The notes beneath the pieces were generated by a model, which was not told the origin of the DNA, did not search any database, and saw only the letters and a program-made list of their open reading frames with translations. A DNA stretch of 64,000 bases, from sequence record NC_031103.1, one strand, 5' to 3'. This DNA comes from Escherichia phage vB_EcoM-UFV13. Shown piece by piece: positions 32,547 through 44,667 of this stretch. A program made the position numbers and the translations under genes. Every line of letters begins with the position of its first letter. Positions within the stretch are counted from its first letter, which is position 1.

Positions 32547-33671
32547 TTAGTATCCTTCTGGGATAAATTTTTTATAATTTTTCAAAAAATTCTGTTCGAT
32601 TTCACACATAACCTTCTCTTGACTATCATACCCTTGGTAGAGGCTCATGATGATACCGAACAGATGTTCCATTCCAGCACCTTTAGCAACGCCTTGCGCT
32701 TCCATCGCATAAGTCTTTCTATCTTTGCCGCAATGCTTATTGTGACAGTCAAGAACTAAAAACAGAGCTCGGTCTAAGTACTTCAGATAAGTCGTCTCAA
32801 ATGCTTCAATTTTTCTATATGAGTATTCATCGTCAGCGTACATTGCTTTAAGATCATCTGACGCACCATCAATAATAGTCTTAAACAATTTTTCTGGATT
32901 ATCTAACGAACTTTTTGTACTATGAAGAGACACATACCAGTCAGACTTAATTTTAAAATGAGAACCATCTTTCATCACAGCAACATAGCCTTCGATGTTT
33001 TCTGCATTTTTAGCTTCTTCGACCCATTTAGGACTATCGATTTCGTATCGTTCAACTAGATATGGACGAAGAACAGCATCTTTATAAATATCATCATATG
33101 AAATGTATTCGCCTGTTTCATTTTCACGAATATTCAATAAAATGATTTTCATCTCTTGATAAGCAAGAACGATTCTATTCGTTGGAGCAACGAATTCAAA
33201 GTTAGCAGTAAATCCATCTTCGGCTAATTTTTTAAGTCTGTCACGCAACTGATGGTGATTAATATTCATCAAAATTCCATTAGCCATTAAAGCCTGTTCA
33301 GATTTGATTGAACCCTTTGATTTGAACAGAATTTCATCGCCGTCTAAATAAGTTGATACCAAAGACCCATCTTCTTTTGTTAGAATGTAATCAACATCAT
33401 TTAAATCGATATTCATCGTGAATGGATTTTCATTCAAGTTAAAAAACTTTTCCATAGGACGAGAAGCGATTCTTACCGGTTTTTCTCCATCCATTTCAAA
33501 CATAATTCCACGACATTCTAATGCGTCTGGAAGTAACCAATCAGAATAAGATGCGTAATTATATGAGAAAATTCTGTAAGTTCTTCCAGATGCACTTACA
33601 TCATCTGAGTAAAAAAACTTACGTTGTGAATCCTTACATAGTTCCATTAAATTGTTAAAAAGTTCTTGCAT
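32547..33671 (-). CDS. rnlA: RNA ligase 1
   Basis: 374 aa from ATG at 33671 ([24 protein letters not shown]...) with AGAGGA Shine-Dalgarno; KEDG adenylation motif; ORF-track start is a 12-codon extension. Confidence 0.95.
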
Positions 33672-33723
33672 TGTGTATCCTCTTTTGTGTTTTGAATATA
33701 GTACCACACTCCATGTGGAAGCA

Positions 33724-34134
33724 TCATTTTTTCTTGTGTTGAATATTCCAAGGCGGGTTAAATAGCTTAATGAATAGTGGCTCCTCTAGGTCAATCGTTG
33801 CGATTGTCATTGTACCTAACTCATTTGTCATAGAAAGATTAAAACATTGGCGGGCGTAAAATTCAACTTTGCTTCCTTCCTTTAGCGCAGCATGAATTAA
33901 TGCAGATTTAGTAGAATCAGACGTTTTGTCTTTACGATTAATAGCAGTTCTATAATAATTTATTCTTTTACGTAAATTTTTAGTTTTTCCAATATAAACA
34001 AGCTCATCATTTATGGCAATAGCATAAATTACGTTATACTTGTTTGGAATAGATAATTGTTTTATACTTCCGTTATCGTCTAATTCTAGCTCAGTATATT
34101 TAATAAATGAATATTCTGTTGCAATTTCTTTCAT
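33724..34134 (-). CDS. denA: endonuclease II (GIY-YIG family)
   Basis: 136 aa from ATG at 34134; GIY-YIG-like motif [17 protein letters not shown]; position between rnlA and nrdB as in T4. Confidence 0.85.
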
Positions 34135-34166
34135 AATAAAATGGGCCTTGCGGCCCACTCCTTAAA
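34135..34166 (-). promoter_or_regulatory. structured ribosome-binding site of denA
   Basis: Minus strand UAAGGAG-U-GGGCC-GCAA-GGCCC-AUUUUAUU-AUG; Shine-Dalgarno overlaps the nrdB stop and is 23 nt from the AUG unless the GNRA hairpin forms. Confidence 0.6.
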
Positions 34167-35331
34167 AATATTTTTTAAAACTCATCATAACTTTATCATC
34201 AACATCATTATCAATCTGCGCAACAAGGTAAGATGACAGTTCTACTTCTTGCGGTGCAGATTGAACATTATCAGAATTAAGATATTCACGAATCCAAGGA
34301 TACGGATGTTTAACCGGAGCATCAGTAATTGGGCATGGAAGACCGCACTGTTTCATACGAGATACAGTTAAGTAATCAATAAAGCTCCACATGCTATTTG
34401 TATTTAATCCAGGAACATCGCCATCTTTAAATAAATGAACTGCCCAGTCTTTTTCTTGACGGTTAACTTCCATGAAAATATCAACTGCTTCTTGTTCACA
34501 TTCTTGGGCAATTTTAACCCATTCATCACCATCAGTGCCAAGTTGAAGTTGACGAATAATATATTGGGTGCCTTTAAGGTGAAGCTGCTCATCACGTGCA
34601 ATGAACTTCATAATCTTGGCATTACCTTCCATAATTTCCATGTTCTTATGGAAGTTAAAGGTACATGCGAAAGATACATAAAAACGAATAGCTTCCAATG
34701 CGTTGATTACGTGCAGGCAGAGGTAAAGAGATTTCATTAGTGCTCGTTTAGTACATTCAACAACTTTGCCTAACTCTTCTTTACGAAATCCTTCTGATAA
34801 AATTCCTTCATAATCTTCAACCGCATTCTGATATTCACGAGTCTTAACTAGAACATCATCGTAATAGCGACCAATGGACTCGGCACGTTTCATAATAGCT
34901 TTATCTAATACAATCTCGTCAAATACTTTTGACGGATCAGTATAAAGATTTCGCATAATATGAGTATATGAACGGCTGTGAATAGTTTCGCTAAAAGTCC
35001 ATGTAGCAACCCATGTATCAAGACTTGGGTCTGAAATTAACGACATAAGTACAGCAGACGGCGCACGACCCTGAATGCTATCCAAAAGTGATTGATACTT
35101 CAGGTTATTAGTAAAAATATCTTGCTGATATTGAGGAAGCTTGTTAAATTGTGCAGCATCCATCATCAAGTTTACTTCTTCAGGACGCCAGAAAAATGAT
35201 AATTGCTTTTCGGTTAAATCTTCAAAAACTTTATGACGTTGAATATCGTAACGCGCAATACCGAGACCTGAACCGAAGAACATAGGTTCTTTTAAAACAT
35301 CAACTGGATTTGTATTAAAAACTGTGCTCAT
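34162..35331 (-). CDS. nrdB: ribonucleotide reductase small subunit, uninterrupted
   Basis: 389 aa continuous ORF, class I RNR beta subunit. Confidence 0.95.
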   Translation of the reverse strand: MSTVFNTNPVDVLKEPMFFGSGLGIARYDIQRHKVFEDLTEKQLSFFWRPEEVNLMMDAAQFNKLPQYQQDIFTNNLKYQSLLDSIQGRAPSAVLMSLISDPSLDTWVATWTFSETIHSRSYTHIMRNLYTDPSKVFDEIVLDKAIMKRAESIGRYYDDVLVKTREYQNAVEDYEGILSEGFRKEELGKVVECTKRALMKSLYLCLHVINALEAIRFYVSFACTFNFHKNMEIMEGNAKIMKFIARDEQLHLKGTQYIIRQLQLGTDGDEWVKIAQECEQEAVDIFMEVNRQEKDWAVHLFKDGDVPGLNTNSMWSFIDYLTVSRMKQCGLPCPITDAPVKHPYPWIREYLNSDNVQSAPQEVELSSYLVAQIDNDVDDKVMMSFKKYF

Positions 35332-35382
35332 AAATTTTCCGCTTAGTTAATAGATAGTGACTCGTCCGTGAGTCAAATTATA

Positions 35383-43645: not shown

Positions 43646-44563
43646 TCAAAATTCATTAATGCTATTAGTTAATTTAGAAAGACCCGCTTTTACAAAATAT
43701 GAATAAATTTTGCCACGCGGTGGTAATTTATATGAATTATAGTAATTCACAATGTTTGAAGCAATATTATCAGGAATATAATCAAAATCAATTAGAACTA
43801 AATTTTCTTTATAACGATTATATTCAGATTCTGTGAGAAGCACCTTAGCTTGCTCACGGTCATTAGCAATAGCTTCAACGATTGAAGTTTTCATTGAAGG
43901 AGTTCGTTCACCTTCAACTTTGGTAAACCAAAAGTCAGATCGTACTTTAACTGAAGCAACGTTATCCTTTTTGTCACCTTTAAGGATTTTAGTCATACAG
44001 TCAATTTCAGCAGAACCGCTTTTAATTTTAACCCATTTCTTATGCATCGGTGACCATTGCTTAACATTTGGGTATTTGTGAAGCTGTGTAAAGTCACCAT
44101 CCGACGAAATGATTAAAATCTTATGTCCTTCTAAAGAGAACTTTTTAACAAGAACAGCAATGTGGTCATCTGCTTCATACTTATCAATATCCATAACAAT
44201 GTATGGCATATAAGCTTTCAATTCATCTATAACTTTATGGCTGGATTCAAAATAACCTTCCCAGTCCCAAGTAGATTCTTCTCGTGCTTTTCCACGGTTT
44301 TTCTTATAATAATAAGCGAAATCACGACGCCAGTATCCAGATTTCGCGTTATCAATACACAGTACAATTTTAGTGTATCCAAGCGTTTTTGCTTTTTTGA
44401 CATTAAACTTAATTGAGTTCAATATCAAATGACGAACCATTGATAAATTAATTTTTTCTTTATCTGGGAAGTTTACTAAAGCAGTTGAAAGCGCAATTTG
44501 ACTAAAGTCAATTAAGCAAATTCCTTCTTTGTAATCTTCATCCAGCATCATTTCTAAATCCAT
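43646..44563 (-). CDS. rnh: RNase H / 5'-3' exonuclease
   Basis: 305 aa from ATG at 44563 (MDLEMMLDEDYKEG...) with GAGG Shine-Dalgarno; ORF-track start is a TTG extension. Confidence 0.93.
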   Translation of the reverse strand: MDLEMMLDEDYKEGICLIDFSQIALSTALVNFPDKEKINLSMVRHLILNSIKFNVKKAKTLGYTKIVLCIDNAKSGYWRRDFAYYYKKNRGKAREESTWDWEGYFESSHKVIDELKAYMPYIVMDIDKYEADDHIAVLVKKFSLEGHKILIISSDGDFTQLHKYPNVKQWSPMHKKWVKIKSGSAEIDCMTKILKGDKKDNVASVKVRSDFWFTKVEGERTPSMKTSIVEAIANDREQAKVLLTESEYNRYKENLVLIDFDYIPDNIASNIVNYYNSYKLPPRGKIYSYFVKAGLSKLTNSINEF

Positions 44564-44589
44564 ATGAACCTCGTTCAATTAGTGAGATT

Positions 44590-44622
44590 TCTATTATATA
44601 CTATCCAAATCTTAAAGTAAAC
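44590..44622 (-). promoter_or_regulatory. early promoter-like sequence for rnh
   Basis: Minus strand GTTTAC, spacer, TATATAAT. Confidence 0.55.
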
Positions 44623-44625
44623 AAG

Positions 44626-44633
44626 TATAAATA
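44626..44633 (+). promoter_or_regulatory. late promoter motif TATAAATA for gene 34
   Basis: Exact motif 35 nt upstream of the gene 34 ATG. Confidence 0.75.
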
Positions 44634-44667
44634 CTTATTATTGAAAACACAATAGGAGCCCGGGAGA

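Follow-up and report, generated by a model that had tools for sequence, protein, structure and literature searches.

All six sites at which phage T4 carries a mobile element are empty in the 64-kb stretch of the genome of Escherichia phage vB_EcoM-UFV13 that was analysed here (record NC_031103.1; the whole stretch is referred to as the window). The genes td (thymidylate synthase) and nrdB are uninterrupted, and four intergenic sites lack the homing-endonuclease genes (HEGs) that T4 has there; the backbone is intron-minus and HEG-minus. One short segment of td is not of T2 type, namely 36 nt lying over the recognition sequence of the homing endonuclease I-TevI, which are of the type found in phage RB32. 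We consider it very probable that this is an ordinary T2-type, endonuclease-poor genome in which a short conversion patch of RB32 type covers the I-TevI site, and for which homing can be inferred as for T2 except at td.

The window is from a T2-like Tequatrovirus, and this genome segment is present in it in the usual form, poor in endonuclease genes. It extends from gene 22/23 to rIIB, the open reading frames (ORFs) having been named via the T4 and T2 annotations. A part of 12.1 kb (32547-44667) had been flagged in an earlier sequence-only reading, which described td and nrdB as continuous, pointed to three short intergenic gaps as vacant HEG sites and proposed the backbone both as a useful reference and as a recipient for homing. 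By megablast, about 486 GenBank phage records match these 12.1 kb over at least 80% of their length, and the best matches (JE01, BF15, KIT06, PP01 and several T2 records, all Tequatrovirus) show 95.5-96.2% identity over the full 12.1 kb.

Six empty sites

Comparison of the window with T4 (blastn against T4 nt 98000-168903, read together with the T4 annotation) reveals six clean T4-only insertions within its span, so that T4 inserts are present at all sites noted in the sequence-only reading and their positions could be located by alignment of the junctions, as that reading had proposed. Two of them are introns. The td gene (38205..39065, minus strand) is one uninterrupted ORF of 286 aa and nrdB (34162..35331, minus strand) one of 389 aa. 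Both are collinear with the spliced T4 proteins, aligning end to end with these and with T2, and the sequence is continuous across the exon-exon junctions, in agreement with the lengths and the continuity reported before. The equivalent of the T4 insertion site lies between 38517 (the last nucleotide of exon 1) and 38516 in td, and between 34665 and 34664 in nrdB. In T4, the td intron has 1017 nt and contains I-TevI, while the nrdB intron has 598 nt and contains I-TevIII; the T4 annotation bears out this assignment and shows the I-TevIII copy to be truncated.

The remaining four insertions are intergenic. Between nrdB and nrdA, where T4 has 696 bp with nrdB.1 and mobE, the window has a slot of 51 bp (35332..35382, minus strand) with a small hairpin, in which 2 bases differ from T2. 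The slot between genes 32 and 59, occupied by segG in T4, has 99 bp (42303..42401, minus strand) and does not differ from T2; it includes the leader of gene 32 and the late-promoter core TATAAATA. For both, the earlier estimates of about 50 and about 100 bp and the absence of mobE and segG proved correct. The slot between inh and uvsW (7078..7127, plus strand) has 50 bp, again as estimated, contains TATAAATA and is identical to T2; for this place the sequence-only reading had named segE, with segD as an alternative, and the T4 map settles on segE, since segD is found between genes 23 and 24. The corresponding 23-24 slot of the window (2277..2359, plus strand; 83 bp) consists of a strong terminator hairpin followed by TATAAATA and is likewise identical to T2, while T4 has segD there on the opposite strand. 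In each of the four slots the T4 insert drops cleanly between conserved flanks, and the window differs from T2 by 0-2 bases. According to a review of homing endonucleases, the T4 counterparts of such slot signals (terminators and late promoters) now lie inside the inserted endonuclease genes.

No trace of the T4 elements was detected. A tblastn search with T4 SegD, SegE, SegG, MobE, NrdB.1, I-TevI and I-TevIII against the whole window gave no match better than E = 0.3, while DenA, included as a control, was recovered with a 99% match. Short-word blastn with the DNA of the T4 inserts produced just scattered chance matches of 13-24 nt, located away from the slots. No GIY-YIG or HNH ORF was found in the slots (50-99 bp in length) by tblastn and by Pfam searches over the window-specific ORFs. 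The Rfam group I intron model RF00028 gave no match in 32000..45000 even at E <= 0.1, while it scored the positive controls, two td introns without endonuclease from phages N2 and Shinka, at 72.6 and 66.9 bits. At the gathering score the whole window was also negative, a threshold that misses the ORF-bearing td and nrdB introns of T4 itself (tested on T4 130000-153000). As Rfam fails to recognise these ORF-bearing introns, its negative result would be insufficient by itself, and the DNA comparison is the stronger test of intron absence. The possibility of cryptic remnants, raised in the sequence-only reading as a potential refutation, was thus pursued by three approaches, and none were found.

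Distribution of the empty layout

The empty layout is already known, and each of the T4 elements occurs in a minority of the sequenced relatives. Edgell, Gibb and Belfort, in their 2010 review, describe T4 as an outlier with 15 homing endonucleases, most relatives having few insertions, and T2 is the usual recipient when homing and marker exclusion are studied in T4 x T2 crosses. In a count of GenBank phage records with a match to at least 80% of the respective T4 element, the td intron was found in 197, the nrdB intron in 118, segG in 142, segE in 159 and segD in 53 records; the full nrdB.1+mobE segment occurs in 20, with about 120 more having a partial or diverged mobE. Even these frequencies are overstated, because the counts take in duplicate records and many laboratory T4 stocks. 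Among the 30 best matches to the flagged region, about half align as a single collinear piece of about 12.13 kb, from which it follows that all four slots of the flagged stretch are empty in those phages as well.

The sequence-only reading was therefore right as to emptiness, which holds for the whole window and not just for the flagged part, but its suggestion of a useful intron-minus, HEG-minus reference has to be qualified: the layout is that of T2, so that the phage is neither a new nor a specially useful reference.

A short RB32-type patch over the I-TevI site in td

The recognition sequence of I-TevI comprises 38 bp, reaching from the cleavage motif, located 23/25 nt upstream of where the intron is inserted, to about +11 (PMC2988022). 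Its equivalent in the window (38506..38543, minus strand; positions -27..+11) departs from the T4 sequence at 13 positions and from the T2 sequence at 14, all of the changes being synonymous, while T2 and T4 differ from each other at 6. It is identical to that of RB32.

These differences belong to a mosaic patch of 36 nt (38505..38540, minus strand), which corresponds to td coding sequence (CDS) nt 526-561 and to positions -24 to +12 relative to the intron insertion site. Within it there are 15 synonymous differences from T2, which affect 11 of 12 consecutive codons. The window and T2 differ at 30 positions in td nt 1-690, and half of these are concentrated in the 36 nt (binomial P = 4e-12, or about 3e-9 when corrected for the placement of the segment). 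In the 654 nt outside the patch there are 15 differences from T2, with none in nt 571-690, compared to 27 from RB32. Sites that are informative for T2 versus RB32 are of T2 type in nt 483-513, of RB32 type at 15 consecutive positions in nt 526-561, and again of T2 type in nt 577-714, a pattern that indicates a conversion tract 36-63 nt long. With respect to T2, the patch contains the codon-family switches CGA->AGA, TCA->AGT and CTT->TTG. As these are unreachable by single silent steps, the block must have been imported as such rather than accumulated in place.

The patch resembles td genes of distant T4-like phages (6-7 differences in 54 nt) more than it resembles T2 or T4 (15 differences). 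The distant alleles were taken from IMG/VR and come mostly from distant T4-like phages; they serve for tracing the likeness of the allele and are no population sample of close relatives. With a 100-nt query and a cut-off of 95% identity or more, the block was found in 42 of 675 records. Among eight carriers (the window, RB32, BP32, HY01, W143, sb1, AV119 and BCH953P2) it shows 0-1 differences, whereas their td backbones differ mutually by 15-47 nt in 654 (2-7%). An invariant block on diverged backbones implies that the block has moved between them. We thus envisage that a 36-63-nt stretch of td over the I-TevI recognition sequence was replaced by the RB32-type allele, most likely through short-patch gene conversion with a diverged td gene as the donor.

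Mosaicism is also seen at the 3' end of td (window 38205..38375, CDS nt 691-861), which is diverged from T2 and T4, and more so from RB32, and contains amino-acid changes near the C-terminus (KDYQSHGVLKGK vs NNYVSHPPIKGK).

A different arrangement at this site is seen in phage N2 (ON645936; locus L005 1201-1554, 2074-2754), where td has a 254-nt endonuclease-less intron. The exon-1 flank carries the RB32-type block from -24 as far as -2, the last exon base alone being T, while exon 2 is of T2 type. Immediately downstream of td, the opposite strand has an ORF annotated as 'endonuclease I-TevI', and N2 may possibly represent a free-standing endonuclease paired with an ORF-less intron.

Expected response of the td site to I-TevI

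The sequence-only reading had also asked whether recognition sequences are intact or carry resistance polymorphisms, and the answer differs between sites: that of I-TevI has the 13 substitutions relative to T4 described above, whereas the region nicked by MobE is of T2 type (see below). In the I-TevI cleavage motif, 5'-CNNNG-3', C1 and G5 are critical (PMC5009752, PMC2988022). The window has CAAAG (38539..38543; -27..-23) where T4 has CAACG, so that both critical bases, which occupy the first position of a Gln codon and the second of an Arg codon, are kept at the right distance, and the central triplet is changed from AAC to AAA. Further differences from T4 affect 7 of 15 positions in the spacer and 6 of 20 in the primary binding region. 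Kleinstiver et al. (2014) assayed the motif plus 15-bp spacer of natural phage td genes with a TALE fusion of the I-TevI nuclease-linker (Tev-mTALEN) and reported activity at or above the T4 level on all natural variants tested except RB32, where it was reduced. Over this assayed 20-nt stretch of motif and spacer the window is identical to RB32.

By analogy with RB32, the td site of the window is likely to have a reduced sensitivity to I-TevI. Several published observations weigh against this expectation. The RB32 result was obtained with a chimeric enzyme in a yeast reporter, not with native I-TevI in a phage cross, and the half of the site that contacts the DNA-binding domain was not included. 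I-TevI is famously tolerant of substitutions (PMC5009752, PMC2988022), and AAA belongs to the A/T-rich central triplets, which it generally prefers; AAA is not named in the published text among the poorly cut CNNNG variants. The enzyme also binds its own operator, identical to the homing site at 15 of 20 positions, with equal affinity (PMC2988022). Given this tolerance, the operator binding and the retention of the critical C and G, the td site of the window may still be cut. As the site is the RB32 variant, however, it should not be assumed that the phage is a good recipient of the td intron; we regard its suitability as doubtful, and it is probably a poorer recipient than T2.

Targets of MobE, I-TevIII, SegG and SegE

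For MobE, SegG and SegE the comparison leads to a different expectation. MobE-dependent nicks have been mapped in T2 nrdB at nt 122-126, and a polymorphic stretch (nt 114-131) adjoins the conserved FFWRPEE codons. The equivalent of the nick site (35206..35210, minus strand; nrdB CDS nt 122-126) is identical to T2, as is all of nt 114-128; synonymous changes occur at nt 129 and 132, and FFWRPEE is conserved. T4 nrdB differs at many positions in this target region.

The cuts made by the active I-TevIII of phage RB3 lie upstream of the nrdB insertion site, at 14 and 16 bp from it (PMC1865063), and fall at 34679/34681 in the window. Here nrdB equals the T4 exons at -20..-6 and differs at -5 and -2, the change at -2 being common to T2.

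Gene 32 of T2 is a reported target of SegG (PMC2330249). In the window this gene (single-stranded-DNA-binding protein; 41394..42302, minus strand; 302 aa) is a T2-type allele, with 4 nt differing from T2 in its first 360 nt. For SegE, phages RB30 and RB52 are experimentally shown targets. The first 150 nt of uvsW (7128..8639, plus strand) are of T2 type, with 0-2 differences per 60 nt from T2 compared to 14-16 per 60 nt from T4; such divergence from T4 is to be expected where the copy in T4 itself is the immune variant.

The earlier proposal of a homing recipient can thus be upheld in part. On the basis of these T2-type sequences it is plausible that the phage is a recipient for MobE, SegG and SegE, while for the td intron, with its RB32-type I-TevI site, the proposal is doubtful. 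Upon mixed infection with T4, nicking or cutting would be expected at the T2-type targets in nrdB (MobE), in gene 32 (SegG) and in the inh-uvsW/uvsW region (SegE), after which mobE, segG and segE would be acquired via double-strand-break repair, as published T4 x T2 work suggests. It weighs against this expectation that sensitivity to SegG, SegE and SegD is deduced from near-identity to T2 and not from mapped cut sites. In practical terms, the phage would serve as a recipient of mobE, segG and segE in the way T2 does.

On the stretch from the MobE nick site to the point of intron insertion, nrdB has a hypervariable segment (window about 34730..34850; CDS nt 481-600, aa about 160-200) with amino-acid changes and indels, which differs among T4, T2 and the window by 26-35 differences per 60 nt. 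Such a segment could act as a homology barrier to co-conversion.

Alternative explanations

An ordinary T2-type genome that never acquired the T4 elements is not the only conceivable origin of the empty slots. The lineage might once have carried the T4 introns and endonuclease genes and have lost them precisely, the empty slots then being secondary. Decay and loss of elements do occur in this group, as endonuclease-less td introns (254-320 nt) are present in the close relatives N2, Shinka and 215Ecol030PP, and truncated copies of mobE and I-TevIII are common; moreover, a clean recombinational replacement by an empty allele is indistinguishable from never having had the element. We nevertheless consider precise loss to be quite unlikely, as remnants are absent at each of the six sites and the flanks are of T2 type and not of T4 type in uvsW nt 1-150, in nrdB nt 61-180 and in gene 32. 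Elements that had been resident would be expected to leave T4-type flanks by co-conversion, so that T2-type flanks count against past residence. An error of assembly or annotation, such as collapsed introns, would also make td and nrdB appear continuous. The chance of this is negligible: both reading frames are intact and of full length, and the same uninterrupted genes and gaps are found in independently sequenced T2 records as well as in PP01, KIT06, JB75, EP01 and RB32. The same layout in so many independent genomes excludes an artefact of assembly for practical purposes.

The origin of the td patch is more evenly balanced. It may reflect neutral T-even mosaicism, having come to lie over the I-TevI site by chance and without effect on homing, and to this we give a probability just short of even. 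The same 3-kb region has other short RB32-type runs in addition to the unrelated divergent 3' end of td, the immediate flanks of the patch are conserved in all alleles and provide convenient crossover points, and, with CNNNG kept, the enzyme's tolerance of many substitutions leaves room for unimpaired cutting. Chance does not readily account for the close match between the limits of the patch (-24 to +12) and those of the recognition sequence (-27 to +11), for the concentration of half of the T2 differences of the first 690 nt within the patch, or for its invariance across carriers whose backbones are 2-7% apart; RB32 is, in addition, the only one of the natural td variants tested with reduced activity of the I-TevI nuclease-linker. 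The patch could instead be an I-TevI escape allele, that is, an imported synonymous block which lowers cleavage and is passed on whole, by short-patch gene conversion, between Tequatrovirus td backbones that are otherwise unrelated. This would explain why the patch is invariant on flanks differing by 2-7% and why it ends nearly at the limits of the recognition sequence; we regard it as a tentative proposal that is somewhat more likely to be wrong than right. Should the patch prove to be an escape allele under selection, it would offer a clear example from nature of evasion of a homing endonuclease purely by synonymous changes moved via micro-recombination.

Other features of the window

In the flagged part, the gene order is rnlA, denA, nrdB, nrdA, nrdA.1, nrdA.2, td, an extra ORF, frd, a second extra ORF, frd.1-3, 32, 59, 33, dsbA and rnh, followed by gene 34 on the opposite strand. 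The genes bordering the slots on the side of nrdA (35383..37647, minus strand; 754 aa) and of gene 59 (helicase loader; 42402..43055, minus strand) belong to this series. The sole GIY-YIG protein of the region is encoded by denA (33724..34158, minus strand) and is 99% identical to T4 DenA; it was rejected as a homing endonuclease, as DenA is the host-DNA-degrading endonuclease II.

At the site of the T4 frd/td overlap there is a cassette of 416 bp (39069..39484, minus strand; one copy of the terminal repeat counted), with the 9-bp direct repeat TAAATGAAA marking its two boundaries (39060..39068 and 39476..39484). The repeat contains the frd stop and the td start. The cassette carries an ORF of 115 aa (39111..39458), which belongs to phrog_1928 and has no Pfam domain. 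It is absent in T4 and present in T2, where it is unannotated, and in RB32, where it corresponds to RB32ORF229c and is annotated as 'flanked by 9 bp repeat'. Further small ORFs have no T4 counterpart, namely 30795..31115 (106 aa, between pseT and pseT.1), 40059..40304 (81 aa, after frd) and 61921..62226 (101 aa, near denB), and T2 has an ORF at the same place as the first two. The cassette ORF and these three were considered as candidates for unrecognised homing endonucleases and rejected, as they have no Pfam domain and all fall into PHROG families of unknown function.

Outside the flagged part, 17545..21702 contains two full-length tandem genes for alt-like ADP-ribosyltransferases (685 and 698 aa), as in T2, where T4 has one alt gene and the remnants alt.-1 and alt.-2. 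The hoc gene (5257..6387) is an intact ORF of 376 aa, while the T2 reference record annotates two fragments. Gene 38 and the distal part of gene 37 (51305..55084) do not resemble those of T4; both the layout and the gp38 of 263 aa are consistent with an adhesin arrangement of T2 type.

Comparison with known systems and significance

That T2 and most T-even relatives lack the T4 introns and most of the homing-endonuclease genes has been known for decades, and the classical experiments on marker exclusion and homing with T4 and T2 rest on this absence, so that the empty sites as such matter little. Only the RB32-type patch is of modest interest and, as a candidate for an I-TevI escape allele, might repay experiment.

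In comparison with T4 (NC_000866), the window has homologous genes in the same order with 94-98% identity over most of its length. T4 possesses both introns, nrdB.1+mobE, segG, segE and segD, all of which the window lacks; conversely, T4 does not have the frd-td cassette and retains the second alt gene only as remnants. The comparison with RB32 (NC_008515) concerns its td allele: the 38-bp I-TevI site is identical, td is intronless, and the same ORF (RB32ORF229c) is located between frd and td. Outside the patch, however, td of the window is closer to T2, and its 3' end differs from RB32 by 8-24 per 30 nt. The closest parallel is provided by T2 (NC_054931), which has the same gene order across the window, uninterrupted td and nrdB genes and four slots that differ by 0-2 bases, and in which the MobE target, the 5' end of uvsW and gene 32 are of the same type. 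T2 also shares the two full-length alt genes and the extra ORFs next to frd, one between it and td and the other after it. It differs in that overall identity is only about 95.5%, in that hoc is split into two fragments in the T2 record and intact in the window, and in that the hypervariable segment of nrdB and the 3' end of td are other alleles; the I-TevI site, too, is different, at 14 of 38 positions.

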